Part shown: piece after piece, positions 1,464 through 28,032 of the stretch | Layout of the letters: the number at the start of each line of letters is the position of its first letter | Position numbering within the stretch: position 1 is the stretch's first letter | Source of the DNA: Armatimonadota bacterium | GTDB lineage: Bacteria; Armatimonadota; UBA10988 | Reading direction: 5' to 3' | Length of the DNA: 28,032 nt | NCBI GenBank assembly: GCA_016235455.1 | Contig: JACRKZ010000149.1 | Coordinates: 1 to 28,032, forward strand | Translations under genes and position numbers: made by a program | The notes under the pieces: generated by a model | Database searches by the model: none | The model's input: only the letters and a program-made list of their open reading frames with translations | Told to the model about the DNA's origin: nothing

Positions 1464-1470
1464 GCGCGGG

Positions 1471-3504: not shown

Positions 3505-3527
3505 GTCCGTCTCCCCCGCGGCCTAAG

Positions 3528-4991: not shown

Positions 4992-6451
4992 CACCTGAAT
5001 TCCCCCGGATGCCGGCGCCGCAGTTCCTCGACATGCTGGCCGCGGCCAGTGGCCTCGAGCCGCTGGCAGTAGGCGGGCAGCAGGCCGCGCGAGTGCAGCG
5101 GGCCGCCTTCGCGCATCACGGTCCAGAGGGGATCCACCGCGTCGGGCATGGCCATCATCTGGTCGTCGTGCCAGTTCAGCAGCAGCCGCGCCGCCTCGGC
5201 GCAGACCTCGGGCCGCTGGGCGGCCAGGTCGTGGGTCTCGTGCGGGTCGTTCGCCACGTCAAACAGCATCTCGCGCGGCCACAGGTGATAGAAGTCGTGG
5301 TAGGTGCGGATGTAGTGCCACGGGCCGAAGCGCACGCTGCGCTGGGCGCCATGGCAGCACTGGCCCAGCACCAGATGGTCGCGCTGCGCGTAGCTCTCGC
5401 CGGTCAGCGCGCCGGCATAGCTCTGGCCCTGCCAGCCCGCGCGCGGCTGCGCGCCAAACAGCTCGGCCAGAGTCGGACCCAGGTCCAGGTTGTAGTGCAG
5501 CGCGCTGTCGACCGTGCCGGCCGCCAGGCCGGGGTAGGCGATGAGCATGGGAATGCGGTGGGTCACGTAGTCCGAGGTGCCGTGCTCGCCGTAGCTGCCC
5601 AGTTCGCCCAGGTTCTCGCCGTGGTCCGAGGTCACGATGATGGCCGTGTCGTCGAGCACACCCGTGTCGGCCAAGGTGTTCAGCAGCCGGTCGAGGTGGC
5701 CATCCATGTAGCGGATGCCGCAGTCGTAGCCGTCGATCATCTGGCGGAAGCCGGCCATGTCGGGCACCTGCCCAGGATGGCGCGGGTACCTGGGCGACAC
5801 GACGTCGTCGGCCATGCTTACTTCCCAGCAGCCGTGCAGACCGGGCTGGGTGCGATGCTCGGCCAGCAGGTCGGGCGTCATCCAACTCGGCAGCGGCTCA
5901 TCGGCGAACGGGTTGCCGAACTCGGCCGGGGCGCGGTACGGCGTGTGCGGGTCCCAGTAGTTGACGTGCAGGAACCAGTTGTCTTCGCTGGCATGGCGAC
6001 CGAGCCAGTCCAGCACGTGCGGAGTGACCTCTTCGGCCGACTCCATGCCGCCGCTGCCCGTGTCGTAGGTTTCGGCGAAGCCGGCGTTGAACCAGAACGC
6101 CGAGTGGCGCTGGGCAAAGGGCGAGACCGAGGCCGTATGGTAGCCCTGTTGCCGCAGGAAGCCCCACAGGCTGAGCTGCTCGGCATCGTTGCGGAAGCCG
6201 CGGTCGCGGCCCTGCAGGCGCAGGTCGGCGGCGGTGCCGCCGTGGCCCACGATGCCCGAGCGGATACCGTGGCGACCGGTAACCAGCGCCGCGCGCGACG
6301 GCAGGCAAGGCGCGTCGGAGCAGTAGTAGTTGTCGAAGCGGACTCCGCGCGCGGCGACCGCGTCGAGCGTGGGGCTGGTCTGGCGGTGGTAGCCGTAGCA
6401 GCCCAGGTGGTCGGGCCGCAGCGTGTCGAGATCGAGGAAGAGGATGCGCAT
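4991..6451 (-). CDS. Sulfatase family protein (S1, formylglycine-dependent), no signal peptide
   Basis: MRILFLDLDTLRPDHLGCYGY, CLPSR (CxPxR), WDPHTPY and TSDHGE. Start reassigned to the ATG at 6451, which has a GGAGG RBS at 6456-6460, instead of 6553. Confidence 0.92.
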   Translation of the reverse strand: MRILFLDLDTLRPDHLGCYGYHRQTSPTLDAVAARGVRFDNYYCSDAPCLPSRAALVTGRHGIRSGIVGHGGTAADLRLQGRDRGFRNDAEQLSLWGFLRQQGYHTASVSPFAQRHSAFWFNAGFAETYDTGSGGMESAEEVTPHVLDWLGRHASEDNWFLHVNYWDPHTPYRAPAEFGNPFADEPLPSWMTPDLLAEHRTQPGLHGCWEVSMADDVVSPRYPRHPGQVPDMAGFRQMIDGYDCGIRYMDGHLDRLLNTLADTGVLDDTAIIVTSDHGENLGELGSYGEHGTSDYVTHRIPMLIAYPGLAAGTVDSALHYNLDLGPTLAELFGAQPRAGWQGQSYAGALTGESYAQRDHLVLGQCCHGAQRSVRFGPWHYIRTYHDFYHLWPREMLFDVANDPHETHDLAAQRPEVCAEAARLLLNWHDDQMMAMPDAVDPLWTVMREGGPLHSRGLLPAYCQRLEATGRGQHVEELRRRHPGEFR

Positions 6452-6513
6452 GATGCCTCCTGGTGGCGTCACACGCGGCATTGGCTGTGGACGGGCCGAG
6501 TCCTTGCCCCGCC

Positions 6514-6545
6514 AACAGAAGGCCCAGCGCCAAGGACGCCGGGCC
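6514..6545 (-). terminator. Intrinsic terminator-like hairpin upstream of the sulfatase operon
   Basis: Minus strand reads GGCCCGGCGTC-CTT-GGCGCTGGGCC followed by TTCTGTT. The 11-bp stem has two G-U pairs that form only on the minus strand. Confidence 0.45.
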
Positions 6546-6754
6546 CGCTGCAAACCCCCTGGTCCGTCGACGGGACGGCCATCCCATGGTTCCCCTGCGG
6601 CCGTCCCGACTCGACGTTGACTGTCGGGAAGCTTAGATTCCCACGCTGAAAGAACACCAAAATCGAGATGGTATCGGCGACGAGTTGGTTGATCGTTGGC
6701 ACGGCCGAGCCGTTACGATAGGGGCGGTGCGATGGGAAGGCGCACGGGTGCGGC

Positions 6755-16094: not shown

Positions 16095-17810
16095 TCAGCC
16101 CCGGCGCCGGCAGGCGGGCGGCATGTGGCGCAGCTCCCAGCCCTCGCCCCGGTACGCCCAATAGCCGTCCAGGGCGTCGGCCATGGCCACCATCCAGTCG
16201 CGCACGGCGCGTGGCCCACCGGCCAGCTTCAGCCGGTCGAGCGCCAGATCGTCGGCCACGCCGAGGTCGACCTGGCCGCGCCGCGCCAGATCGGCCACCA
16301 CCTCGGCGGCCGACGTGGGCGCGGTGTGGGTCTGCGGCACCTGGCGCCAGAGCCGCGTGTCGTCGGGCGGGATGAGCAACGCCGCGCGCAACGTGCTGCC
16401 CGACCAGTGGCGGAGCACGAGGGCCGTGTACATGGATCGCGGGAAGCGGCGGAGGATCTCGCTACGGCCGATGTAGGCCAACTCTCCGGCCTCGGCCTGG
16501 CCACCATGCAGGATCGGCGCGAAGCCCAACGGCTGGGCTCGCCACAGCGCCAGCGCGTCGGCCTCGGCGGCCGGCGCGGCGGTCACGACGGCGGTGGCGA
16601 CCGCCGACTCCAGGTAGCCTTCCCGGCCGTCAGCGTGCTGGCGGGCCATCATCGCGCGCACCGATAGGCTGCCGGGCTTGTCGGCGACGAACTCAGTGCG
16701 CCTGTCTTGGCCGCCTCCTGGCAGCACGACGGGCGGGTCGGCAGGTAGCCATCCGCCCAGGACGGACAGTCGCCAGCTTCGCTCCTCGCCGGGCGCCAGA
16801 TCGAGGTCGGTGGTCGGTGGGTCGCAGGCCAGGCGCGGCCTGTCGGGTGCTGGCCCTCGCCAGCACGCGGCCGGCCACCAACTGAGGCCGTCGGTGGAGA
16901 ACAGCAACGCCAGATCGGCCGGGTAGCCCGGTGGCAGCCGGCGGTCCCAGCGCCAACGGTCGTCCGGCGGCGGCGGCACCAGTCGGATGAGGCAGGGCTG
17001 CCGGCTGTCGTTGCGCAGGCGCAGGGTGATGTTCACCTCGCCACACTCCGGGATACTGGGCCGGTCGAAGGTGGCGGTGAGCCGCGCGACGTCGCTCGGC
17101 GGTGGTGCCGGCTGGGGCTCCGGCCCATCGTCCAGCGCCGGCGGCGGGTCGGCGAACGGTGGGTAGCTGACCACCCAGCGAGACAGCCGGCCGAAGTACG
17201 TCGCCGCGTAGCGACCGCGCAACTCGTGTGCGGCGGAGCTGGTGCCGAAGCTGTCTGTCGCTTGGCCAGAGGCGAGCAGGGCCAGCCATGTGTCGTACGC
17301 GCCACGCTCGGTCGCCGGCAGCGCCACGACGGTGATCGGCACCGTGTTGGAGCAACTGACGACCCCGCTGTACGCGAAGGGCTCTGCCGACCAGCGCACG
17401 TACCACGTGCCCGGCTGGTCGAAGACCGGTTTCCGGCTTGTGGGCACTGGCCAGCGCTGACACAGCAGGACTTTGCGTGATGCGCTTGCGCCTGGCTCCA
17501 GGTGGATGATGCGACCGCTTGGCACGCACGGCAGCGGGCTCACCGGGTACTGCCATTCCTGCCCGTCGCGCGACAGCCCAATGCCGGTCTGGCTGTCGTC
17601 GAAGAACATCTCGGGGTAGTCGATGGCGACGGCAGCCCGGTTGGTGATCTGCGTCGTCACCTGGACCAGGCCGCCCACCGGGATGTGCGTGGGCGAGCAG
17701 GTGATGTGGTAGGCCAGCGGCGCCGCAGCCGCGGCCGGCTGAGCGCCGACGGCGCGCAGCAAGGCGGTCAGGAGGAGCAAGCGCCGGCACGTCGGCGGCA
17801 GAGTCGGCAT
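16095..17810 (-). CDS. Secreted hypothetical protein with two tandem Ig-like/beta-sandwich modules
   Basis: Start reassigned to the ATG at 17810, giving the signal peptide MPTLPPTCRRLLLLTALLRAVGAQPAAA. The longer ORF would overlap the opposite-strand gene. Two similar modules are separated by a Pro-rich linker. Confidence 0.65.
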   Translation of the reverse strand: MPTLPPTCRRLLLLTALLRAVGAQPAAAAAPLAYHITCSPTHIPVGGLVQVTTQITNRAAVAIDYPEMFFDDSQTGIGLSRDGQEWQYPVSPLPCVPSGRIIHLEPGASASRKVLLCQRWPVPTSRKPVFDQPGTWYVRWSAEPFAYSGVVSCSNTVPITVVALPATERGAYDTWLALLASGQATDSFGTSSAAHELRGRYAATYFGRLSRWVVSYPPFADPPPALDDGPEPQPAPPPSDVARLTATFDRPSIPECGEVNITLRLRNDSRQPCLIRLVPPPPDDRWRWDRRLPPGYPADLALLFSTDGLSWWPAACWRGPAPDRPRLACDPPTTDLDLAPGEERSWRLSVLGGWLPADPPVVLPGGGQDRRTEFVADKPGSLSVRAMMARQHADGREGYLESAVATAVVTAAPAAEADALALWRAQPLGFAPILHGGQAEAGELAYIGRSEILRRFPRSMYTALVLRHWSGSTLRAALLIPPDDTRLWRQVPQTHTAPTSAAEVVADLARRGQVDLGVADDLALDRLKLAGGPRAVRDWMVAMADALDGYWAYRGEGWELRHMPPACRRRG

Positions 17811-17864
17811 GATGGGTCCCCTGGGCCACGGATTCCGTGTGCGGCGGCGGCCTCCTCCAAGCGG

Positions 17865-17891
17865 TTGACCGCCGCGCGGAGCGGGTATCAT
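17865..17891 (+). promoter_or_regulatory. Putative sigma70 promoter (TTGACC...TATCAT)
   Basis: Near-consensus hexamers upstream of the ATG at 17910, but the spacer is only 15 nt. Confidence 0.4.
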
Positions 17892-17909
17892 GCCCCCAGG
17901 TGGACAGCC

Positions 17910-18389
17910 ATGCGTGGTGGACGAGTTCTGGTGGTGGTGCTGCTGCTGGGCGCCGCGGGCGCCGGCGTGCTCTGGCTGCTGCGGCCGCCGCCGCGCGCGG
18001 AGCAGGCCGTGCCCGCGGCCATCAAGACCTTCTGCGATAACGTCGGACAGTGGCGCGTGCATGAGGCCATGGCCGTGGTCTCCAAGCGCTACAAGGGCGA
18101 TCTGTACTCACGCGGCGATATCGCGCGTGGGCTGATGCAGATGCGCACCACCTGGAAGACGTTCCGCATCTACGTGGCCGGCGTGCAGGTCATCCCCGGC
18201 GGCGACGGCAAGTCGGCCACGGCGCTGGTCGATGTCAGCCTGACCGGCGTGCAGAACAATGGCGGTGAGGAGCACCTCGGCGAGGACAAGCCCGTGCGCG
18301 TCACCTCGCACTGGGAGCTCGAGGGCCGGGACTGGCGCTGCGTGTCCACCGCCAACACCCCCGGCGTCGGCACCGAGGGGTTCTACTGA
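17910..18389 (+). CDS. Membrane-anchored NTF2/SnoaL-like (DUF4440-like) protein
   Basis: Start at ATG 17910 (MRGGRVLVVVLLLGAAGAGVLWLL). Pattern AIKTF...AMAVVSKRY...DGKSATALVDV...WELEGRDWRCVS fits an NTF2-like fold. Strong GC3 codon bias. Confidence 0.75.
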   Translation: MRGGRVLVVVLLLGAAGAGVLWLLRPPPRAEQAVPAAIKTFCDNVGQWRVHEAMAVVSKRYKGDLYSRGDIARGLMQMRTTWKTFRIYVAGVQVIPGGDGKSATALVDVSLTGVQNNGGEEHLGEDKPVRVTSHWELEGRDWRCVSTANTPGVGTEGFY

Positions 18390-18390
18390 T

Positions 18391-19899
18391 CTACCGCCGT
18401 CGATAGATATCGATGCTGGGCAGCAGATAGAGCCAGTCGTGCTGCCGCCGGCCCAGGCCCGTCTCGCGCCAACCGGGCAGGATGGTCGCGCGGTTGGCGA
18501 AGCTGACCACGCGCTCGTAGTCGCGGGTCAGCGCCGCCCAGCGCTGCGGCTCGGCATGGTAGCGCTCCAGGCGCTTGGTCTCGTTGACCGCCAGCCAGCG
18601 CGGCGGGTCGGCCGGCCAGGCGTCGGGGTCGGAGCGCAGGTCCCAGCGGCTGCCGTCGGCCGGGCCGGGCACCGGGTGGCCCGAGTTGTTGGGCCGCAAC
18701 GGCACCGACCAGAACCAGGTCCGCTCGATCTCGCCCACACTCTCGCCGCCGGGAATGTTGGCCGCGCACCACGCCGCGGCGCGGTCGCGGGCGTCGTCGC
18801 CGGCCATCATGGCCACCAGCGCGCGGCTGCGCAGGCCGGGGCCCAGCAGCAGCGCCAGCAGCACTGCCGCTCGCCAGCGCTGGGGCGCGGCGCGCACCGC
18901 TTCGGCGGCGGCCAGTGCCAGCACCGGCAGCAGCGGCAGCCAGTAGCGGATGAACAGCTCCTTGGTGCGGCCCATGGCCAGCAGGCACAGCGCCGCCCAC
19001 AGCAGCAGCGGCCAGGCCTCGCGACGCCGCGCCAGGCGCGCCAGCCCGACGGTCGCGGCCAGCGCCAGGAGCGTGCCCGCCGCCGTGGGCAGGTTGTCGC
19101 GCAGGTGGAACCACCAGCCTGGCCCCACGCCCACGAACAGGTTGCTGGCGCGCGGATGCTCGATCAACTCGAAGCGGATCTGCGCCCAGGCTTGTGGGTC
19201 GATGAACACAAAGGGCGAGGTGGCCACGAAGACCAGCGCCGCGAGCCCGACCGCGGCCACAGCCTCCACCGCGGGCCGCCGGCCCAACCACAGGCCGAGC
19301 AGCAGCGGCAGCAGCACCAGCACACCGTTGTACTTGGTGCCGGCGGCCAGCCCGCAGGCCACGGCGCCGATCCACAGCCAGCGGCGCGACGCCCCCGGCC
19401 CGGCCAGTTCCACCGCCGCCCACAGCGCCAGTGCGCACCAGGTGGTCAGCGGTACATCGACCGTGGCGAAATGGCTGTTGACCACGGCCAACGGTAGCAC
19501 CGCCAGACAACCCGCCGCGGCCAGCCCAAAGCGCGGCGAGACCAGCCGGCGGCCCAGCCCGAAGACCAGCGCCACGCCGGCCGTGCCCAGCGCCACGGTC
19601 ACCAGCCGCGCCAGCACGTACCACAGCCCGAGGCTGTCGCCACTCGGCGCGAGGATTAGGCTAACGAGCTTCAGAAAGCCATAGACGAGGTAGATGGTGA
19701 GGCTTGGGTAGTTGAAGAAGCGCGGGTTGTGCTCGCCGCTGACGACCATGCGCAGGGCGGTGTCGACGGTGGACCATTCGTCGGGGTGGTAGCTCTTGAG
19801 GTGGATGCCGTTGGGTACACCCCAGGCCAGCCCGCCGAGGCGCAGGGCCAGGGCCAGGGCCACGATGCCAACCAGTGCCAGTCGCTCATGCCGGGTCAT
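18391..19899 (-). CDS. GT-C fold membrane glycosyltransferase (ArnT/PMT, GT39/GT83-like)
   Basis: LALRLGGLAWG, HPDE in the first external loop, NPRFFNYPSL, SHFATVDV, GLAAGTKYNG and about 11 hydrophobic segments. Confidence 0.88.
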   Translation of the reverse strand: MTRHERLALVGIVALALALRLGGLAWGVPNGIHLKSYHPDEWSTVDTALRMVVSGEHNPRFFNYPSLTIYLVYGFLKLVSLILAPSGDSLGLWYVLARLVTVALGTAGVALVFGLGRRLVSPRFGLAAAGCLAVLPLAVVNSHFATVDVPLTTWCALALWAAVELAGPGASRRWLWIGAVACGLAAGTKYNGVLVLLPLLLGLWLGRRPAVEAVAAVGLAALVFVATSPFVFIDPQAWAQIRFELIEHPRASNLFVGVGPGWWFHLRDNLPTAAGTLLALAATVGLARLARRREAWPLLLWAALCLLAMGRTKELFIRYWLPLLPVLALAAAEAVRAAPQRWRAAVLLALLLGPGLRSRALVAMMAGDDARDRAAAWCAANIPGGESVGEIERTWFWSVPLRPNNSGHPVPGPADGSRWDLRSDPDAWPADPPRWLAVNETKRLERYHAEPQRWAALTRDYERVVSFANRATILPGWRETGLGRRQHDWLYLLPSIDIYRRR

Positions 19900-19906
19900 G
19901 GGCGGC

Positions 19907-19915
19907 AGCTTAGCA
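19907..19915 (-). promoter_or_regulatory. Extended -10 element (TGCTAAGCT), probable leaderless promoter for the GT-C gene
   Basis: TGnTAnnnT exactly 7 nt before the ATG at 19899, with no Shine-Dalgarno sequence. Confidence 0.5.
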
Positions 19916-19923
19916 CTGTCAGC

Positions 19924-20670
19924 CTAGCCCGCCGCCAGGAAATCCAGAATCCGCCGCGCGTGATGGTCGAAGGTCAGCCCGGCCACCACGCGTTCGCGCG
20001 CGCGGTTGGCCAGCCGGCGGCGCAGGTCGCCATGGTCGAGCAGGAGTTGGGCCAGTTCGGCCAGCTCCGCGCCGCCATTGGTAAACGCGATGGTATCGCC
20101 GAACAGCTTCTCGGCCGTGGGCACGCGGTCCGAGAGGATGGCCGCGCCACAGCAGGTGGCCTCCCACAAGCGCGAGGTGGGCACGTCGTTGTTCCGGTGC
20201 CAGGCGGTGTGCGCCGAGAGCACGAGGCTGCAGCTGGAGTAGAGCGCTGGCACATCGTTGGGGTTGATGCGGCCTTTGAGACAGCCCGAGTCGGCCAGCT
20301 CCGGCTCGCGTTCCCAGCCACTGCCATAGATGGCCAGGCCGAGGGGCAGCAGCGGCAGCAGGTAGCGCTCAACCTCGTCGCGGGTGCGGGCTTCCTCGAC
20401 GGGCCCGTCGGGCGGATTGAGGCGCGGCGCCTGGAACCACCACACCTGCCGCGGACCGGCCACCACGCGACACTCGGGGTAGGGGTAGAAGCTGAGCACC
20501 AGGTCGAGGTTGTCGTGGATGGTGCCCACGCTGTAGATCTCCGCCTCGGCCACGTCGGGCTGGCGGCGCAGGGCCTCGGCCAGGCCCACGGCCATCACCT
20601 CGTCGCCCCACACGGCGCCGGTATAGGTGTTGATCACCGGGAGTTGCAGCCCGATGCGCAGTCCGCTCAT
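19924..20670 (-). CDS. Small glycosyltransferase (Glyco_trans_1_2/CgeB-like GT-B)
   Basis: WGDEVMAVGLAEAL, LAIYGSGW, LYSSCSLVLSAH...SRLWEATCCGAAILSD and TFDHHARRIL. ATGA overlap with the upstream gene. Confidence 0.8.
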   Translation of the reverse strand: MSGLRIGLQLPVINTYTGAVWGDEVMAVGLAEALRRQPDVAEAEIYSVGTIHDNLDLVLSFYPYPECRVVAGPRQVWWFQAPRLNPPDGPVEEARTRDEVERYLLPLLPLGLAIYGSGWEREPELADSGCLKGRINPNDVPALYSSCSLVLSAHTAWHRNNDVPTSRLWEATCCGAAILSDRVPTAEKLFGDTIAFTNGGAELAELAQLLLDHGDLRRRLANRARERVVAGLTFDHHARRILDFLAAG

Positions 20671-22508
20671 TGGCCCACCACCTTCCGCCAGATGCGCTCG
20701 ACCACATGCCGCGCGGTGTAGTGCTCGGCGACGAAGGCCTTGGCGTGCGCGGCCACCTGCTGCCGCACGGCGTCGTTGGCCAACAGCGCGCGGATGGACT
20801 CGGCGGCGCTCGCGCGGTCGATGACCAGCAGCAGGTCATCACGCGCCAGCTCGCTGCCGGGGGTCAACGGCTCGGTCACCACCACGGCGCCGCAGGCCAT
20901 GGCTTCCACCACGCGCAGCTCGGTGTTGGGCAGCGCCGTGAAGTGCAGGTTGAGCACCAGCTTGGCGCGGTTGAGCAGCTGAATGTAGTCGTCGCCCCAG
21001 GCCTGCGCCGCGGTGACCTTGACCCCGCCGGCCTCGATGGCGCGAATCCACTCGGTGCGGTGCTGCGAGACATTGCCCACGAACAGCAGATCGATGTCGC
21101 GCTCCAAGCCCAGATCGCGGTGGAAGGTCGGGGAGTAGGGCAGCGGCACCACAGCGGTCAGGTTGCGGTGGCCGCGATCCAACAGGAACTCGAGGGCATG
21201 AGCATCGTGCAGGATGACATGGTCGTAGGCGTCGGCCGCCTCGCAGTACTCCGCGTAGCGCTTCTCGGCGTGCGGGTCGGTGGCGGCCAAGGTGGGCAGC
21301 ACCTCGGGGCTGTAGAGCACGGTGGTCGCGCGCAGGGCCGCCACCAGGTCGGCGCTCAAGCCGCCGCGGTCGACCAGCACCACGTCCTGTCGGCCGGCGC
21401 CGTTCAGCAGGCCGATGGCGGTCTGCGGCGAGCGCAGATCGACGGCCACCGGGTTCAGCCCGGCCTCGCGCGCGCCCGCCACCAGCCAGGGTGGCATGTA
21501 GATGGGCAGATGCTGGCCCACCACCAGCAGGCGCGGTTCACGACAGTGCAGCGGCTGCTCGACCGCCTCGGTGGTCAGCGTCTCGGCGGCGCCGAGCTCG
21601 TCACCCAGCGTGCCCAGGTCAAACGCGTCGAGCGCGGCCAGGCTCAGCGCCACGCCGGCCTGGGCCAGGCGGTGCAGCCCGGCCAGCTCGGCGGACTCCG
21701 GCGCGCGGGCCAGCCGCACCTCGACCGCGGCAGCGCGGGTCAAGGCCTCCCAGGCCGCGGGGTCGGTCGGTCCATCCAGCGTCAGCCGCACCGCCCAAGG
21801 CCAGTCGAGCCCCGCCAGCGCGGTGCCCAGGTCGGCCAGGTAACCTGCTTCAGAAGCCAGATCGGTATCTTGGATGAGGAGGTGCGTCAGCCGCGGATAG
21901 GCGCGCTGGCAGAAGGCCAGGTCGTCCAGCAGCCAGGCGGCGCCATGGCGCCGGCCGGGTCCGCGACCGGCCTGCTGCACCAATTGCGGGCCGTCGGGCA
22001 GGCCCGGCAGCGGCAGACGGTAGCGGTGCACCGAGTAGTCGCGATAGGGTCGCGGCAGGCTGTCCAGATCGGGCAGCGGGTCGGCCGGATACACGGTCGG
22101 CGCGTCGAGCGCGCAAGCCGCCAGGAGGCCGAGTTCGGGCTCGCCGCAGACGACGGCGCGCACATTGGGCAACTCGAGGAACAGCTCCGCGGCGCGGGCA
22201 TCGCCCGACCACAGCACGATGACTGGCCGCGCGGCCACGGCGATGAGGGGCAGGTCGCCGTCGATGGTCTCGGGTGCGGCGGCGATGGCCACGACGTCGG
22301 TGACCAACTCGGCAATGCGAGTCAGGCAGCCGGCCTCGCTCTCACCGCTGGCCACGGAGTCGACCAGCCAGGCCTGCGTGTCGGGCTGGGCCATGAGCCA
22401 GCCGGTGGCCTCGGCCAGCCGCGCCGGCCAGGGCACCTGCCCAGCGCGGCCGCGTATCGCGGCGGCCGCGCTGGGCGGATGGCACACTTGCACACGGGTT
22501 ATGCTCAT
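20667..22508 (-). CDS. Fusion protein: degenerate B12-binding/radical SAM-like N-terminus + Glyco_trans_1_2/CgeB-like glycosyltransferase
   Basis: C-terminal GT motifs DIDLLFVGN and LNRAKLVLNLH...RVVEAMACGAVVVTE. The N-terminal ~320 aa align by eye with the B12/rSAM part of the upstream gene (LVDSVASG, VVCGEPE, LPDLDSLPRPYR, AGRG) but lack CxxxCxxC. Confidence 0.8.
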   Translation of the reverse strand: MSITRVQVCHPPSAAAAIRGRAGQVPWPARLAEATGWLMAQPDTQAWLVDSVASGESEAGCLTRIAELVTDVVAIAAAPETIDGDLPLIAVAARPVIVLWSGDARAAELFLELPNVRAVVCGEPELGLLAACALDAPTVYPADPLPDLDSLPRPYRDYSVHRYRLPLPGLPDGPQLVQQAGRGPGRRHGAAWLLDDLAFCQRAYPRLTHLLIQDTDLASEAGYLADLGTALAGLDWPWAVRLTLDGPTDPAAWEALTRAAAVEVRLARAPESAELAGLHRLAQAGVALSLAALDAFDLGTLGDELGAAETLTTEAVEQPLHCREPRLLVVGQHLPIYMPPWLVAGAREAGLNPVAVDLRSPQTAIGLLNGAGRQDVVLVDRGGLSADLVAALRATTVLYSPEVLPTLAATDPHAEKRYAEYCEAADAYDHVILHDAHALEFLLDRGHRNLTAVVPLPYSPTFHRDLGLERDIDLLFVGNVSQHRTEWIRAIEAGGVKVTAAQAWGDDYIQLLNRAKLVLNLHFTALPNTELRVVEAMACGAVVVTEPLTPGSELARDDLLLVIDRASAAESIRALLANDAVRQQVAAHAKAFVAEHYTARHVVERIWRKVVGQ

Positions 22509-22538
22509 GTCAGCGCGCGCTCCGGGGCCCGGGCCGAG

Positions 22539-25500
22539 CTAGTTGCCCTTGATCCTGGCCAGCAGCTTGGCCAGTGACGGCGCCATGCTCTTGGCCAGCG
22601 ACACGAACAGCTCGTGGTTGAAGCCCTGCATGGAGCATTCGGCCTGCAGGCCATTCTCCTTGGCCCAGCCCAGCAGCAGTTCGTCGTCCCAGCCCTGAGG
22701 CAGGCTCTCGGGCCCGGTCCGGCCGAGCACGAGTCGGCCGCCAGGGGCCAGCCGTGCTGGCAGCTGGTCCATCCAGCCCTCGGCCAGCACGCGGTTGACC
22801 GGGGTGGAGAGCACCAGCAGATCGACCGACTCGGGCGGTAGCTGGTCCAGTTCGGCGGCGTCGGCCACGTAGGTCGTGGGCACGTCGCGACCGATCTGCT
22901 GACGGGCCTGACGGCACGTGGTGTGCAGCGCCCAGCGCCAGTGCGCCTCAAGCAGCACGGACTCCAGTTCGTCCTTGCTCAGGTACTGGCCCTTGACCAC
23001 GGTGTAACGCGCGCCGTCGAACTGCTTCCAGTCCGTGGTCAGCAGCGTGCCGTCGCGCACGGCGTCGGCATACATGCTGGTGCCGGGGAAGGGCGTCATC
23101 AGCGAGAACTGCACGGTGTCCGGGTCCAGCTCCAGTGCCAGGTCCATGGTGCGGCGCGCCGACTCGTAGGTCTCGCCCGGTCCGCCGAAGCTGAAGGTCA
23201 GGTGCACGCCGAGGCCCAGCTCCTTGCACCAGCGCACCGCCTGGGCCACCTTGTCCAGGTCCAGGTTCTTCTTGATGCGCTGCATCATCTCCACATCGCC
23301 GGTCTCGACGCCGAACTTGATGCCCACCAGGCCCGCGCGCTTCATGGCTTCGAAGGCCTCGCGGCTGGAGGTGTCGGCGCGGCCCATGGCCGTGATCGGC
23401 ACGCCGAAGTGCGCCGCCTCGATGCGGTTGCACAGGTCGATGATGCGGTTGTCCTGGATGTTGAAGGTGTCGTCGTCGTAGTAGATCGCCTTGAAGCCGT
23501 AGCGATCCAGCAGGAAGGCCATCTCGGCGACGATCTCCTCGTTGTCGCGGGTGCGGTACGAGTGGCTGTTGTAGACCACCTGGGGCCAGACGCAGAAGAT
23601 GCACTGGAAGGGGCAGCCGCGGCTGGCGTGCATCTGCACGTTGGGCCAGGGCATGGCGCCGGCGAAGCTGTCGAAGTAGTTGTACATCGGCAGCGTGGTG
23701 CGGTCCGGCCAGGGGAACTCGCTCATCGGCGGCAAGGGTCGGCGCTCATGGACGGCGTGCACCGTGCCGTCGTCGTCGCGCCACAGCAGGCCCAGGATGC
23801 CTTCGGGATCCTGTCCGTCGCGCAGCCGCTCGCACAGTTCCACGAGGGTTGGCTCAAACTCGCCGAGCAGGATGCCGTCGACTTGCGGCGCCTCGGCCAT
23901 CAGGTCGTCGGCGATGGCCGTGGCGTGCGGCCCGCAGAACAGCAGCTGCGTGCTGTCGCCCAGGCGCTCCTTGAGCCGCAGCGCCCAGTCCTGGTCGATC
24001 TCGTGGCTAGCCGTGGCGGTTTCCATGAGCACCAGATCGGGCTCCCAGCCCTCCAGGCGCCGCATGAACTCGTCGCTGTACAGCCCTTCGGCGATGGCAT
24101 CGACCAGCAGCACCTCGAAACCGCGCTCACGCAGCATGGCCGAGGCGGTGGCCAGGAAGAAGGGGAATGGCACATAGCACGGCACGCGCTGGCCGTGGGC
24201 CTCCTGGGTGAACGGCCAGCGGCTGCCGGCGCGCACGCCGATGCGGTCGCCCTCGGCCCAGGGCGCGTTGACGATGGCCACGCGCGGCCCGCCGGGTCGC
24301 ACCTTGGCGGCGTTGCTCGCCTCGTCGCGCAGCCGGTAGGCCGAGGCCCGGACCATCGACCAGGTGGTGGCGTCCATGGCGGCGTAGACATTGTCCACCG
24401 CGGCCAGGTCGGCCAGTACCGCTTCCTCGTCGCGCGCCATGAGCGCCGTGCCGGGATGGTCGGCGCCGTTCAGGTTGGTCGTCGCCGCGCGGCGCGTGTT
24501 CTCCCAGTTGCAGTACTCGGCCAGCGCCGGGTCGAGCGGCCGGCAGGGGGCCAGATCCTCGTGGATCATCGCCTGCAGGTCCTCGGGCGCGCCGGCACCA
24601 TCGAGCAGCGTGAACAGGCCCAGGTAGACCGCCGCGTGGGTGTCGCCCAGGCAGCGGGCATCGTCGCCCTGCGCCTTGCTGGTGGCCAGGCGCAGATCGC
24701 TCAACATGCGCCAGGGCAGACCGAGGAAGGTCAGGTAGACCAGGTGCCACGAGCGGCGCTCCTGGTCGATGTGCCAGTCATCCTGGTGCCGCGTCATGTT
24801 CTCGGGGAGCTTCTTGATGACGTCGGCCGGCTTGCCCGTGTCGAACACGCCGTAGCGGTACTCAAAGTAGGGGGTGTGGTAGCGCCAGATGGTGCGTAGC
24901 ACCGACTCGAGCGTGTCGCGGCGCAGGTGGCGGCAGCGCGCGGCGGGTTCGTAGGCGAGTCGGTAGCCCTTGGTGCGCACGCGCTCACTGGCGTCGCAGT
25001 CTTCGCCATTGGTGCGATACAGCGGGTCGTGGCCACCGACGCCGAACAGCGCCTCGCGCAGCCAGACGCTGTTGCAGCCGTAGAGGTGGCGCACGTCGTC
25101 GGCGTGGTCGTCACCGTGGTGCTGGCCCATGTGCAGCACGCGCCACTGGTCGGGCAAGGTGGCGTCGTTCAACTCCTCCAGGCGGCCCATGACGCCGCCC
25201 AGGCGCGCGCCGGTGTCCTGGCCGTCCTGGTGGTTGAGCCGCTCGGACTCGAAGTTGAGCATGCAGCGCTCGAGCCAGTAGCGGTCGGGCAGCACGTCGG
25301 CGTCGATATGCGCCAGATACTGGGTGGTGGCCGCCAGCAGCGCGGTGTTGCGCGCGTGGGCCAGGCCGCGGTTGTCGCCGTGAGTGACGATGCGTACCGG
25401 GTATTTGGCGGCCATCTGCACGCTGTCGTCGGTTGAGCCGTCGTCGATGATCAGCAGCTCGGTCAGCGGGTAGCTCTGCTCGAGCACGGCGGGAATGACG

Positions 25501-26012
25501 CGGTCGAGGAACGCCGTGGCGTTGTAACTGGGCACGTAGACCGTGACGGGCCGATCCGGGAAGGCGGCGTCCAGGTCGGCCAGCGTGCGGCGCGACTCGT
25601 TCTGGCCGGGGTCGATACCCAGCGACAGACGGAGCGCCTGCTTGGCGGCATAGGGCAGCCCGGCCTCGGCGTAGAGGTCAGCCATGGCGTTGAGCGCGGT
25701 CGGCTGCTCGGGCGCGCACTCGTGCGCCAGGTGCAGGTAGCCCAGCGCGCGTTCCCAGGCGCCCGCGCCGGCCAGCAGTTGGGCCAGATGCAGGTAGGCG
25801 TCGGGGCGTTCGGGGGCCGAGTCGATCGCGCGCAGCAGGTGGGATCGTGCCTGATGGTCGCGCTCCAGGCGGGCGAGCACCATGGCCGAGGTCAGCAGCC
25901 ATTCGTAATCCGGTCCTGTCTGGTCGGCGGCCCCCTCGACTAGAGTCCAGGCCATCTGCCAGTCGCCGCGATCGGCGGCGTCCAGGACCGCGGTGAGCGT
26001 GTCTTGTATCAT
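22539..26012 (-). CDS. Multidomain fusion: TPR + GT2 glycosyltransferase + B12-binding + radical SAM (HpnJ-like) + short methyltransferase-like tail
   Basis: Start at ATG 26012 (GGAG RBS at 26020-26023). N-terminal TPRs. GT2: VYVPSYN, IIDDGSTD, ARN, DAD, GED. B12-binding: RAGSRWP, LVDAIAEG, CGPHAT, LLGEFE. Radical SAM: SRGCPFQCIFC (motif at 23592-23615), YYDDDTF, FGVETG, TPFPGT. Confidence 0.92.
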   Translation of the reverse strand: MIQDTLTAVLDAADRGDWQMAWTLVEGAADQTGPDYEWLLTSAMVLARLERDHQARSHLLRAIDSAPERPDAYLHLAQLLAGAGAWERALGYLHLAHECAPEQPTALNAMADLYAEAGLPYAAKQALRLSLGIDPGQNESRRTLADLDAAFPDRPVTVYVPSYNATAFLDRVIPAVLEQSYPLTELLIIDDGSTDDSVQMAAKYPVRIVTHGDNRGLAHARNTALLAATTQYLAHIDADVLPDRYWLERCMLNFESERLNHQDGQDTGARLGGVMGRLEELNDATLPDQWRVLHMGQHHGDDHADDVRHLYGCNSVWLREALFGVGGHDPLYRTNGEDCDASERVRTKGYRLAYEPAARCRHLRRDTLESVLRTIWRYHTPYFEYRYGVFDTGKPADVIKKLPENMTRHQDDWHIDQERRSWHLVYLTFLGLPWRMLSDLRLATSKAQGDDARCLGDTHAAVYLGLFTLLDGAGAPEDLQAMIHEDLAPCRPLDPALAEYCNWENTRRAATTNLNGADHPGTALMARDEEAVLADLAAVDNVYAAMDATTWSMVRASAYRLRDEASNAAKVRPGGPRVAIVNAPWAEGDRIGVRAGSRWPFTQEAHGQRVPCYVPFPFFLATASAMLRERGFEVLLVDAIAEGLYSDEFMRRLEGWEPDLVLMETATASHEIDQDWALRLKERLGDSTQLLFCGPHATAIADDLMAEAPQVDGILLGEFEPTLVELCERLRDGQDPEGILGLLWRDDDGTVHAVHERRPLPPMSEFPWPDRTTLPMYNYFDSFAGAMPWPNVQMHASRGCPFQCIFCVWPQVVYNSHSYRTRDNEEIVAEMAFLLDRYGFKAIYYDDDTFNIQDNRIIDLCNRIEAAHFGVPITAMGRADTSSREAFEAMKRAGLVGIKFGVETGDVEMMQRIKKNLDLDKVAQAVRWCKELGLGVHLTFSFGGPGETYESARRTMDLALELDPDTVQFSLMTPFPGTSMYADAVRDGTLLTTDWKQFDGARYTVVKGQYLSKDELESVLLEAHWRWALHTTCRQARQQIGRDVPTTYVADAAELDQLPPESVDLLVLSTPVNRVLAEGWMDQLPARLAPGGRLVLGRTGPESLPQGWDDELLLGWAKENGLQAECSMQGFNHELFVSLAKSMAPSLAKLLARIKGN

Positions 26013-26156
26013 GCACGTGCTCCAGGTCCGTTCGAGAGGAGTCTCGGCTAAGCGCGGTTGTCGCGCCATAGCCAAACCTGGCTACGCGGGGTGGTCTGGG
26101 GAGCCGCGTGTCACACGCGGTTCATCTGGGCCCAGGCCCGCCCTGGGACGGGGCCC

Positions 26157-26194
26157 AAAACGAACAGCGGCCCCGCCCGAGGGCGGGGCCGCTG
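26157..26194 (-). terminator. Rho-independent terminator downstream of the lipoprotein gene
   Basis: Perfect 13-bp stem CAGCGGCCCCGCC/GGCGGGGCCGCTG with a 4-nt loop, followed by TTCGTTTT on the minus strand. Confidence 0.85.
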
Positions 26195-26219
26195 CTCAGT
26201 CACTTACGTGACGGCAGGA

Positions 26220-26501
26220 TTACTTCTTGTCGGCGGGGGCCGGCTTGGCATCCTTGGCGTCGGGGGCCGGCTTGGCGTCCTTGGCGTCGGCCGCGGGCTT
26301 GGCGTCCTTGGCATCGGGGGCCTTGGCGTCGGGGGCCGGGGTCGTCGGGGCCGGCGGCGGCGGCGGGGTCATCGAGCCCGAGCCACTACCACTCATCGGC
26401 GCCGGCGGGGCGACTTCTTCGGCCTTGGGGGCGCAACCAGCCAGGCTCAGGGCCACGGCGCAGACGACGGAGGCGGTAAACAGAACAAACAGCTTGCGCA
26501 T
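26220..26501 (-). CDS. Small Pro/Ala-rich lipoprotein with DAKDAKPA repeats
   Basis: Signal peptide II with lipobox LAGC, AAGGAG RBS at 26508-26513, a low-complexity mature region and its own terminator. Confidence 0.85.
   Translation of the reverse strand: MRKLFVLFTASVVCAVALSLAGCAPKAEEVAPPAPMSGSGSGSMTPPPPPAPTTPAPDAKAPDAKDAKPAADAKDAKPAPDAKDAKPAPADKK
26235..26330. repeat. Coding tandem repeat: three 27-bp units plus a partial unit
   Basis: Units at 26235-26261, 26262-26288 and 26289-26315 (consensus gggggccggcttggcgtccttggcgtc) encode DAKDAKPA(P/A). Confidence 0.85.
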
Positions 26502-26576
26502 TGTGCGCTCCTTCTCACAGTGTTAGGCACCGTCCCGGACTGGCCTTGACGGCCCCCTTCCGGCGCTCTCTTGAGG

Positions 26577-26582
26577 ACTATA
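26577..26582 (-). promoter_or_regulatory. -10 element TATAGT for the lipoprotein gene
   Basis: Near-consensus -10 about 75 nt upstream of the ATG, with an A-rich tract further upstream. No clear -35. Confidence 0.4.
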
Positions 26583-26655
26583 CGCGGGGGCTCGCCTTTT
26601 GCGCCGCGAATTTCCCAACTTTCTTTTTGGGCGTGGGCGGCGGGCCGGATCCGGC

Positions 26656-27672
26656 TCAGGGGGCGAGCAGGTTCATGGCCGCCTCGACCACGATGTTGGA
26701 GTCGATGAAGATCGAGTCGGCGGGGCCGCCTCGGCTCTGGCAGTTGGCCTCGGAGCGCAGGCTGTGGTCGACCAGGCGGCCCTGCTCGGGGGCCAGGTTG
26801 TAGGCGCCCGTGAGGCGGTGGGTCAGCGACTGCACCTTGAGGTCCAGCGGGCCGCTGCCCGGCACCGTCAGGCGGATCGGCTCGTCCTGCAGCGTGGTGG
26901 CGCCGTCGAAGCTGATCTTGACCGTCTCGAACGGGCCGACCGTCTGGCGGTTGGCCAGGGCGAACAGCACGTCGAGGCGGTAGGTCTTGGCGCCGACTCC
27001 CGGCAGCGGCACCGCGCGCGGCTGTTCCCATTCCTGGCCGAGCTCCAGGCTGCGGCCGGGCAGTTCGGGCAGCGGCTGGCCGAAGGGCTGGAAATAGGCG
27101 GCCAGCTGGCCGAAGCTGGGCAGCGTGGCCAGGTGCTTGACCCATGGCGCGCCGGTCTTGGCGGTGGTCAGGCCGGCGGGCGTGATGGTCACCTGGCAGG
27201 GCTGCAGCAGGCCCATGGGATCCCAACCGCCGAAGGCTTCCAGCAGGTCGGCCGGCGTGGGCTTGCCGGCCTCGGGCGGCGGCAGCTTCCATTGCGCGTC
27301 GCCGCGCTTGATCAGCACGCCGTCGGGCAGCCGCTCGAGCTCGAGCAGGAACTGGCCGGGGATGGACGAGCCGCCCGACAGGAACATGAGCCGGATCTCG
27401 ACCGTCGCCACGCCGTCGTCGGCCATGGCCTTGACTTCGTAGCGCGTGCGGTCGCAGATATCGAGGCCGACGGGCAGTGGCGCGTGGCGGTTCTCGCCGT
27501 TGACCTGCACGGCCAGCTTGCCCAGCGCCGAGGTCTTGGTCTCGTAGGTGAGCACATCGCCCGCCGCGAAACGGTAGCGCAGGGGATAGGTGGTTGGCGC
27601 CGCGCCGGCGACGATTGAGGCCAGGCAGCACGTCAACAGCAAGCAGCCGCGGAGCATGCAGCGTCTCTCCAT
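26656..27672 (-). CDS. Secreted hypothetical beta-rich protein
   Basis: 338 aa with a signal-peptide-like N-terminus (LLLTCCLASIVAGA), then YPLRYRFAAGDVLTY and LELGQEWEQ. Strong codon bias. No family recognised with confidence. Confidence 0.75.
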   Translation of the reverse strand: MERRCMLRGCLLLTCCLASIVAGAAPTTYPLRYRFAAGDVLTYETKTSALGKLAVQVNGENRHAPLPVGLDICDRTRYEVKAMADDGVATVEIRLMFLSGGSSIPGQFLLELERLPDGVLIKRGDAQWKLPPPEAGKPTPADLLEAFGGWDPMGLLQPCQVTITPAGLTTAKTGAPWVKHLATLPSFGQLAAYFQPFGQPLPELPGRSLELGQEWEQPRAVPLPGVGAKTYRLDVLFALANRQTVGPFETVKISFDGATTLQDEPIRLTVPGSGPLDLKVQSLTHRLTGAYNLAPEQGRLVDHSLRSEANCQSRGGPADSIFIDSNIVVEAAMNLLAP

Positions 27673-27679
27673 GGCGCGG

Positions 27680-27688
27680 ATGGTACCA
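27680..27688 (-). promoter_or_regulatory. Extended -10 element (TGGTACCAT), probable leaderless promoter
   Basis: TGnTAnnnT exactly 7 nt before the ATG at 27672, with no Shine-Dalgarno sequence. Confidence 0.55.
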
Positions 27689-27827
27689 CACGCGCGCGCC
27701 AGGTGATCTCTGGCGCGGCCGCCGGTTGGGGGCAGGGCCGAGCAGAGACGCCGTCGGTGCCAGGCTCAGGGAGCCGTGCGCGCTGGCAAAGGCCGAAATA
27801 GGGGAATGCATCGATGGTCGGGAGGGC

Positions 27828-27836
27828 TGGTATGAT
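27828..27836 (+). promoter_or_regulatory. Extended -10 element (TGGTATGAT) upstream of the response regulator
   Basis: Near-consensus TGnTATAAT in the divergent intergenic region. Confidence 0.45.
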
Positions 27837-27996
27837 GGCAACCTGCACCGATGGGATGGTTATCTTCTTACGATTGCTGTCCGAAGTGCAGCGGGAGATC
27901 CGGGGAGGTCGCCGTGAGCAGGTGCGGCGACGCGTCGTACCACATGCACATGGAGCGACAGCCAAGGGGGATCGGCCAGATGGCAGGAATGTGAAG

Positions 27997-28032
27997 ATGG
28001 CGCTGACCAAGGTGGTGCTGGTCGATGATCAC
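27997..28032 (+). CDS. Response regulator receiver N-terminus (NarL/LuxR-like), 3' truncated
   Basis: Translates as MALTKVVLVDDH, the classic receiver beta1-DDH start, with an AGGA RBS at 27985-27988. Only 12 codons are visible. Confidence 0.75.
   Translation, partial: MALTKVVLVDDH

Follow-up and report, generated by a model that had tools for sequence, protein, structure and literature searches.

The DNA analysed here, hereafter the window, is the whole of contig C107 (28,032 bases, about 70% G+C) from G000, the genome of an Armatimonadota bacterium from soil/groundwater. It holds four co-oriented genes, here named A to D, which encode glycosyltransferases (GTs), two of them joined to modules of the B12-dependent radical S-adenosylmethionine (SAM) type (Table 1). 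The genes are tightly packed: 30 nucleotides (nt) separate A from B, genes B and C overlap by 4 nt, and D follows C after 24 nt. These coordinates and spacings are those given in a preliminary description of the locus. The domains that it named are likewise all present, as found by Pfam or, for the dead module of B, by hhalign. Its pairing of one active-type with one dead B12-radical SAM module also holds, the iron-sulfur triad being kept in 20 of 20 homologs of A and in none of nine homologs of B. Two parts of A, a conserved linker of about 190 residues and a C-terminal domain of about 115, had not been listed.

Table 1. Genes and features of the locus and its upstream border, in window positions (ORF, open reading frame; aa, amino acids)
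Feature	Position	Strand	Description or basis
Gene A	22539-26012	minus	ORF, 1157 aa; TPR, GT2, conserved linker, B12-binding, radical SAM, C-terminal domain
A, TPR repeats, residues ~40-135	25608-25895	minus	TPR_14, TPR_8, TPR_19, TPR_17 and TPR_16 matches
A, GT2 (GT-A type) domain, residues 155-378	24879-25550	minus	PF00535 93 bits, PF13641 50 bits
A, HpnJ-like B12-binding and radical SAM module, residues ~576-1040	22893-24287	minus	PF02310, PF04055
A, CxxxCxxC iron-sulfur motif (C800, C804, C807), then VWPQVVY	23592-23615	minus	Translation
A, C-terminal domain, ~115 residues	22542-22892	minus	Only in ~1150-aa forms
Gene B	20667-22508	minus	ORF; predicted dead B12-binding/radical SAM module and compact GT-B
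B, predicted dead B12-binding/radical SAM module, N-terminal 300 residues	21609-22508	minus	hhalign against the A family
B, complete compact GT-B fold (PF13524), residues 323-613	20667-21542	minus	Pfam and structural model
Gene C	19924-20670	minus	ORF, 248 aa; small PF13524 GT-B-like protein
Gene D	18391-19899	minus	ORF, 502 aa; GT-C membrane glycosyltransferase (PMT_2)
Lipoprotein-like ORF upstream of A	26220-26501	minus	93 codons; lipoprotein-type signal (…LSLAGC)
GC-rich hairpin and TTCGTTTT after the lipoprotein-like ORF	26157-26194	minus	Read by eye in the sequence; likely terminator

Domain architecture of genes A, B and C

Gene A unites the signatures of two enzyme types in one chain. 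Its GT2 match (Glycos_transf_2, PF00535) covers residues 157-258 at 93 bits, above a cut-off of 23.3, and D190/D191, D237-x-D239 and N335-x-E337-D338 are invariant in 20 of 20 aligned homologs. This match and the DxD motif together place the domain in the GT2 family; its best solved relative in a profile search of the PDB is chondroitin synthase (142 bits). Further along, a B12-binding domain (PF02310; 42.3 bits, residues 621-726, cut-off 32.1) precedes a Radical_SAM domain (PF04055; 70.6 bits, residues 797-959) with a CxxxCxxC motif, the sequence arrangement that marks class B radical SAM enzymes. All 20 homologs aligned retain C800, C804 and C807 as well as the flanking motif RGCP..C..C[VQ]WPQV. 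AprD4 (PDB 6fd2) is the best solved relative of the radical SAM core (155 bits, profile positions 762-998). The TPR part (TPR_14, 25.4 bits) matches the TPR region of OGT and designed TPR proteins in the PDB profile search, and is absent from the fusions of 840-985 aa found in other phyla. The C-terminal domain had no match in Pfam or, by tblastn, across 80 related loci, and a hydropathy scan of A, B and C found no hydrophobic segment. Two homologs of A, P0003 and P0010 (1334-1387 aa), bear an extra class I SAM-methyltransferase domain after the C-terminal domain.

The N-terminal part of B resembles the radical module of A. In a BLASTP alignment, B residues 25-183 match A residues 614-799 (26% identity, E 2e-4), and the alignment ends at the triad site, where A reads ASRG-CPFQCIFC and B reads AGRG-PGRRHGAAW. 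When nine homologs of B were compared with 20 of A by hhalign, B 2-297 aligned to A 574-947 with a probability of 99.2% (E 1.5e-19). This span takes in the B12-binding domain and about two-thirds of the barrel, and about 18 residues that bear the triad are deleted in B. None of the nine B homologs has a cysteine at a triad position, so that B lacks the radical SAM triad altogether. The N-terminal motif of B, NPPW...G.RAG...PWP..LA, is closer to the A-type form (NPPW...GVRAGSRWP...PFPF.LA) than to that of HpnJ. These alignments indicate that the module is derived from an A-type module and has lost the iron-sulfur site.

The remainder of B is a glycosyltransferase. Pfam assigns residues 472-606 only to PF13524 (Glyco_trans_1_2; 63 bits, cut-off 25). 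An AlphaFold model (mean pLDDT 81) in which the N-terminal part forms alternating strand-helix elements has GT4-type GT-B enzymes as its best Foldseek matches. By VIA-align, residues 325-613 of the model superpose on PimA (2gej; Z 21.1, 274 residues, root-mean-square deviation 4.0) and on BshA (Z 20.9). The GT-B half filled the Foldseek and VIA-align lists obtained with the whole model, and the homology of the N-terminal part rests on hhalign. From its predicted domains, B consists of two parts, a pseudo-(B12-radical SAM) module and, after it, a whole compact GT-B. A PDB profile search with the B family gave no match at E 0.1, and a predicted complex between the radical SAM module of A (575-1040) and the dead module of B (1-320) scored 0.00, which is uninformative either way. 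Among 5.8 billion proteins the B family forms 12 clusters, none bearing a name beyond 'hypothetical'.

Gene C scores 89 bits for PF13524 (cut-off 25), and B and C are the two best matches to this family in G000. The window's copy lacks 58 residues between A94 and R95 (nt 20389), at the junction of the two GT-B halves. These residues are present in all four orthologs, which at about 305 aa are stand-alone compact GT-Bs similar in size to the GT-B of B. Logan contigs from four public runs, one of them (X6) from a second study, were aligned to positions 18200-22700. A contig of run X2 (record 9, 6,832 nt) matches 18200-20389 and 20389-21767 with 173 letters between the two pieces; its excess at 20389 amounts to 58 codons (174 letters). 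At this position contigs of X1 and X6 break or diverge, and no contig among those listed from the four runs bridges 20389 in the form seen in the window. The short C is probably an assembly loss or a minor variant, and is poor evidence of decay.

A likely terminator and a GGAG border gene A on its upstream side. Because the hairpin and TTCGTTTT stand upstream and the GGAG sits 9 nt before the ATG at 26012, gene A probably opens its own transcription unit, as read from these signals. A scan of 17500-28032 for consensus promoters and terminators found nothing, including at the hairpin and in the C-D gap. The lipoprotein-like ORF beyond the hairpin ends in a tail of DAKDAKPA-like repeats. At the other end, gene D converges tail to tail with a plus-strand gene ending at 18389.

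Linkage of A, B and C across related genomes

The locus was compared with one genome of the same genus (G001), four of sister genera in the same family (G002-G005) and one of a different family in the same order (G006). The family label in the NCBI records of two of the sister-genus metagenome-assembled genomes (MAGs) is Fimbriimonadaceae. Full-length orthologs of A, with 56-60% identity, occur in G002-G005. A, B and C are adjacent and in the same order in G003, G004 and G005; in G002, B and C are adjacent on contig C82, and A lies on C221, followed by an unrelated ORF. A-B-C is therefore linked in three of the four sister genera and B-C in all four. Neither A nor B was found in G001 (80% complete, 3.4 Mb). 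Full-length B was found in four of 300 other genomes of the phylum that were sampled, all in the same family, and its GT region only in 20 more.

The flanks of the three genes vary. In G002-G004 a protein of 1100-1150 aa replaces the lipoprotein ORF upstream of A; the ortholog of the ~1150-aa form seen in G004 and G002 lies on contig C117 of G000. Directly downstream of C is a squalene-hopene cyclase (SHC) gene in G003, and unrelated genes in G004 and G005. Because adjacency is preserved while the flanks change between genera, A-B-C can be read as a functional unit. On this comparative evidence, the real unit is A-B-C, restricted to one Armatimonadota family, rather than A-B-C-D.

Several observations accompany this comparison. 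The locus of G003 (72% complete; L014, G003:C487, 4390-10258) has A and B each in two frames, through frameshifts or assembly errors. Paralogs of A with 32-33% identity, at G002:C4:55296-57266 and G004:C27:124386-126470, match only residues ~17-735 of A, that is, the TPR, GT2, linker and B12 domain, with the radical SAM core unmatched. The G004 paralog is about 35 kb from A-B-C on the same contig, and no such paralog was seen in G000. In G006, of the neighbouring family, nine minus-strand genes (L015, G006:C194, 454-10217) encode a GT-C, an A-type radical SAM protein, an ABC-2 permease, an ABC ATPase, an A-like GT2, a methyltransferase, a GT2, a methyltransferase and a GT2. This looks like an unfused, exporter-equipped counterpart of A-B-C. 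The GT-C directly upstream of its A-type gene differs from D.

By sequence, gene D is a GT-C protein. It matches PMT_2 (PF13231) at 48.9 bits (cut-off 26.1) and PMT (PF02366) at 40.6 bits, has at least seven hydrophobic segments in a hydropathy scan, and keeps the motif YHPDEW in four of four orthologs. The Asp-Glu pair of the first external loop, which we take to be the GT-C catalytic motif, completes the set of family score, polytopic membrane protein and acidic pair by which GT-C enzymes were recognised. Orthologs occur in G002-G005 (52-56% identity) and G006 (42%), in all five cases on contigs other than that of A-B-C. Their neighbours are unrelated: a Lon-like protease, AcrB, a GH39-like protein and proteins of no family. 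The sole shared neighbour of D, seen in G005, is a small convergent gene on the side away from C. D thus appears as a separately conserved GT-C that is beside A-B-C only in G000. The gene-neighbourhood comparison proposed in the preliminary description upholds the grouping of A, B and C across genera and fails for D, which that description had made part of the system.

The other large ORFs of the window differ in kind: they encode a beta-helix protein, two sulfatases, a BTAD/AAA regulator, and URO-D-like, NMT1/PAS and beta-lactamase-fold proteins. Three more ORFs adjoining the cluster have no Pfam match; flanking ORFs of this sort include a proline-rich one of 655 aa (16095-18062, minus) and one of 338 aa with a signal-like start (26656-27672, minus). 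The right-handed beta-helix protein and adjacent sulfatase genes (3528-4994 and 4991-6553, minus) fall in positions 27-6553, a stretch that suggests sulfated-glycan degradation and has no relation to A-B-C.

Relatives of the radical SAM module of A

Among NCBIfam families, A matches HpnJ best (TIGR03471, 225.7 bits), ahead of ApyD (134.9), BchE (133.4) and AprD4 (113.9), all far below their cut-offs. For HpnJ the cut-off is 577.6 bits, and the score in a genome search was 228.3. A true HpnJ is encoded on contig C116 of G000 (694 bits), beside an HpnI-like GT2 of 252.7 bits (HpnI, TIGR03472, cut-off 310). Given the score below cut-off and the true HpnJ on C116, the module of A is best described as a paralog of HpnJ, not an ortholog. 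HpnI is not among the best 25 of the 56 NCBIfam families matched by A, the weakest of the 25 having E 3.4e-9. The hpnJ/HpnI-like pair occupies G000:C116:11281-14269 and an SHC gene lies at G000:C60:48955-51015; G000 looks able to make extended hopanoids, perhaps including the cyclitol ether.

A pattern scan with C[VQ]WPQV[VFL]Y over one genome per species returned at least 587 relatives, the best 80 of which belong to Planctomycetota, Verrucomicrobiota, Omnitrophota, Acidobacteriota, Elusimicrobiota, Patescibacteria, deltaproteobacterial lineages and Thermoproteota. HpnJ was the top family for all six bacterial relatives tested (217-252 bits), and both archaeal relatives tested were BchE-like; two Armatimonadota controls were true HpnJ (764 and 803 bits). 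The N-terminal NPP..G..AG.R and post-triad C.WPQ motifs are common to HpnJ and A-type proteins and are missing from the archaeal BchE-like relatives. Loci L080-L105, from Thermoproteota and other archaeal MAGs, encode a tight B12-radical SAM group with 27-30% identity to the module of A; their top NCBIfam family is BchE (230-273 bits, below cut-off), and their hosts make no bacteriochlorophyll.

Fusion to GT2 is recurrent in this clade. In a midpoint-rooted tree of 94 rows, which left out L027-L032 (already represented), hits shorter than 380 residues and rows with stops, 20 GT2-first fusions form one group (SH-aLRT 97). This group lies inside an A-type side of 64 rows (SH-aLRT 95), with the archaeal rows and the three HpnJ rows outside it. 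A profile search of 1.84 billion representatives found 23,830 proteins at E <=1e-30; 14 of the best 150 matches run from GT2 through radical SAM in one stretch, and no fewer than 150 clusters (50% identity) exceed 398 bits. GT2-B12-radical SAM fusions without TPR exist in other phyla, and GT2 is fused to A-type radical SAM domains in both orders. Nine other fusions of the clade were scanned: two have radical SAM before GT2, five have at least two radical SAM domains, in one an FkbM methyltransferase comes first, and in one the N-terminus is unassigned.

The genomic neighbours of the clade are also sugar enzymes. Around the 30 closest loci, the four genes nearest to each, within 3.5 kb, amount to 111 proteins. 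Among these, with families overlapping within proteins, were 28 short-chain dehydrogenase/reductase (SDR) epimerases/dehydratases, 17 PF13524 proteins, 13 GT1 and nine GT2 proteins, nine further Radical_SAM and six B12-binding proteins. A PF13524 protein of about 650 aa directly follows the radical SAM gene in eight of 53 loci, an SDR adjoins the fused gene in three of the four fused loci examined, and 24 of 80 loci have a GT2 relative of A no more than 10 kb away. By tblastn, which is weak at such distance, the 80 related loci gave one match to the N-terminus of B, none to its C-terminus, three to C and four to D; Pfam found PF13524 at related loci far more often than tblastn did. A specific link to GDP-mannose dehydratase (GMD) was considered and rejected. 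Its Pfam family is present in 27 of the 111 neighbours, but a close GMD relative occurs in only two of 53 loci, the others being generic SDRs, so the SDR neighbours are of mixed kinds; the GMD of G000 itself is on contig C102. The A-type clade is thus linked with enzymes of glycans and sugar nucleotides, above all with GT2 and PF13524. Since the clade sits among sugar enzymes, radical tailoring of a sugar, which the preliminary description had proposed, may be taken as the natural reading and gains support from these surroundings.

A candidate glycan-tailoring route and its likeness to known systems

We propose, with moderate confidence, that A-B-C encodes a cytoplasmic module of three steps, in which a sugar is first attached, next remodelled by radical chemistry and last extended. 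The GT2 domain of A, by its family and conserved DxD, would transfer a sugar from a nucleotide sugar to an acceptor. The radical SAM module of the same chain would then remodel that sugar through a 5'-deoxyadenosyl radical, perhaps contracting the ring to a carbocycle as HpnJ is proposed to do, perhaps by C-alkylation. We infer that the dead module of B could act as a binding or docking domain that brings the intact GT-B to the modified intermediate. C, as a stand-alone compact GT-B, may add or assist a further transfer. The order 'transfer sugar, then remodel' is the most economical, as A unites both kinds of activity in one chain.

Several points weigh against this proposal. A is apart from B-C in G002, and the same-genus genome G001, at 80% completeness, contains neither A nor B. 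The ORFs of the window that were scanned include no flippase, ABC-2 exporter, priming transferase or SDR sugar-nucleotide enzyme, so that the pathway as seen is incomplete. The combination that would mark lipid-linked glycan export in a locus, a priming transferase with a flippase or ABC-2 exporter, is absent among them as well, and an export step as part of the preliminary description's reading is not supported. One review warns that transfer of function among B12-radical SAM enzymes at ~30% identity is unreliable. The docking role of the dead module of B is itself inferred. Finally, the co-orientation of C and D, their 24-nt gap and the contigs from two runs that bridge them speak for D as a partner, and C and D may be co-transcribed, which would make a four-gene unit in G000.

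The rival to which we give most room is that the module of A is an ordinary cobalamin-dependent C-methyltransferase acting on a poly- or oligosaccharide sugar, a routine decoration without rearrangement. It is possible, although we consider it unlikely. The class most often methylates: the majority of characterised class B members are methylases, and one review lists the moenomycin enzyme MoeK5 among carbon-centre methylases and places it with HpnJ in its similarity network. In addition, SAM-methyltransferase domains are present in P0003 and P0010, an FkbM methyltransferase is fused to a clade member and two methyltransferases stand at the G006 locus. However, neither HpnJ nor BchE, the nearest curated families, is a methylase, AprD4, the closest solved relative, dehydrates diols, and sequence cannot separate methylation from ring contraction or dehydration. 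It is doubtful, to a slightly greater degree, that D belongs to the system, so that A-B-C would build and radically tailor a lipid-linked glycan in the cytoplasm and D would transfer it to a lipid or protein outside. No terminator-like site separates D from C, and both X1 and X2 contigs bridge the C-D junction. The G006 locus sets a GT-C upstream of its unfused A-type gene, together with an ABC-2 exporter, GT2s and methyltransferases, and a D-like GT-C lies within 10 kb in four of 80 related loci. Other data speak against this: in five of five related genomes D is off the A-B-C contig among unrelated neighbours, its conserved neighbour in G005 is the convergent gene on the side away from C, the 25 commonest families of the 111 neighbours do not include PMT_2, and no flippase or exporter is among the window ORFs scanned.

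The likeness to HpnJ invites two more specific readings. The bolder, which we regard as improbable, makes A a single-chain enzyme that glycosylates and then contracts the ring, giving a carbocyclic (cyclitol-type) sugar; the HpnJ-like clade would then be a general route to carbasugar glycoconjugates, and B the first radical SAM pseudoenzyme reader domain, handing the modified sugar to a glycosyltransferase. Somewhat more improbable still is a second hopanoid side-chain system, in which A would be a fused HpnI-HpnJ-like enzyme acting on bacteriohopanetetrol or a related hopanoid, and B and C would extend a new glycosyl or cyclitol-ether head group. HpnJ leads the next curated family by 225.7 bits to 135 and has NPP..G..AG.R and C.WPQ in common with the A type, SHC directly follows C in G003, G000 encodes SHC (C60) and HpnJ (C116), and HpnI, a GT2, together with HpnJ follows the same two-step logic according to the reviews. 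Yet C116 already holds a true HpnJ (694 bits) with its HpnI-like neighbour, the GT2 of A has no HpnI match among its best 25 NCBIfam families, the SHC adjacency occurs in one of four sister genera, and the three HpnJ rows fall outside the 64-row A-type side of the tree. A also has no membrane segment, and its clade reaches Patescibacteria, Elusimicrobiota and others, phyla far beyond those that make hopanoids, where it sits beside sugar-nucleotide SDRs and GTs, not hopanoid genes. Least probable of all, and very much so, is modification of a protein or peptide recruited by the TPR, which A would glycosylate and radical-modify in the manner of RiPPs (peptides that ribosomes make and that are modified after translation) or of O-GlcNAc. 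The TPR of A does resemble that of OGT, the RiPP enzyme ApyD is the second NCBIfam match (134.9 bits), and D is of the protein-mannosyltransferase family. Nevertheless, the fusions of other phyla lack the TPR, sugar enzymes surround the clade, and no small precursor gene is conserved, the lipoprotein ORF being replaced by the 1100-1150 aa protein in G002-G004.

The locus is of interest for its enzymes and for the organism. Assigning B12-dependent radical SAM enzymes from sequence is difficult, and only a few sugar-acting ones are understood. The locus points to a large unnamed clade linked to glycosyltransferases and sugar-nucleotide enzymes by neighbourhood and by independent fusions in both orders. 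A is a self-contained protein of two predicted activities that could be expressed and assayed, and may ease entry to HpnJ-type chemistry, since HpnJ has never been reconstituted according to the reviews. The dead module of B, joined to a transferase that looks active, is a clear instance of a radical SAM pseudoenzyme. Were the product a surface glycoconjugate, it would give a first lead on envelope chemistry in Armatimonadota, a little-studied phylum.

Full-text literature searches, in a library without most subscription journals, turned up neither a GT2-B12-radical SAM fusion nor a radical SAM module without cysteines fused to a glycosyltransferase, and homologs carry only the public names 'glycosyltransferase', 'radical SAM protein' and 'hypothetical protein'. 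The earlier remark that no characterised locus has this architecture therefore stands for the literature, and is tempered by the GT2-B12-radical SAM fusions without TPR in other phyla. For B and C, the nearest known group is that of the GT4-type GT-B enzymes PimA, BshA and TarM and the PF13524 CgeB-like proteins: B 323-613 superposes on PimA and BshA, and both B and C match PF13524. What sets B apart is the dead radical SAM module of 300 residues ahead of its GT-B; the searches turned up no solved or named counterpart to it. D resembles PMT/ArnT-type GT-C enzymes in its PMT_2 and PMT matches, many membrane segments and first-loop Asp-Glu pair, and its orthologs are unlinked to A-B-C. AprD4 is the radical SAM diol dehydratase of apramycin biosynthesis and acts on a sugar ring. 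It is the best solved relative of the core of A, yet only the core barrel matches; AprD4 has no GT fusion and stands alone, with a reductase as partner, in an aminoglycoside pathway.

The systems closest in logic are HpnI/HpnJ and calditol synthase (Cds). According to reviews, the GT2 of the HpnI/HpnJ route adds N-acetylglucosamine to bacteriohopanetetrol, and deacetylation is followed by a proposed ring contraction to the cyclitol ether; Cds is proposed to contract a hexose to a five-membered carbocycle on archaeal tetraethers after glycosylation, and neither HpnJ nor Cds is reported there as reconstituted (PMC13459092, PMC9204698, PMC9092360). HpnI/HpnJ, with HpnK, is like A in that a GT2 adds a sugar that a B12-binding radical SAM enzyme then remodels, and HpnJ is the nearest curated family to the module of A, with the N-terminal and post-triad motifs in common. 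It differs in that A is one polypeptide with TPR and extra domains and a GT2 that is not HpnI-like. No deacetylase turned up, hpnH and hpnK not having been searched for, and the hopanoid gene context is inconsistent. The Cds of Sulfolobus acidocaldarius shares with A the proposed order of events, a likeness of proposed logic only; it is archaeal, acts on tetraether lipids and was compared by description, not by sequence. Set beside these systems, A-B-C is a new variant within the known theme of a glycosyltransferase plus a class B radical SAM enzyme.

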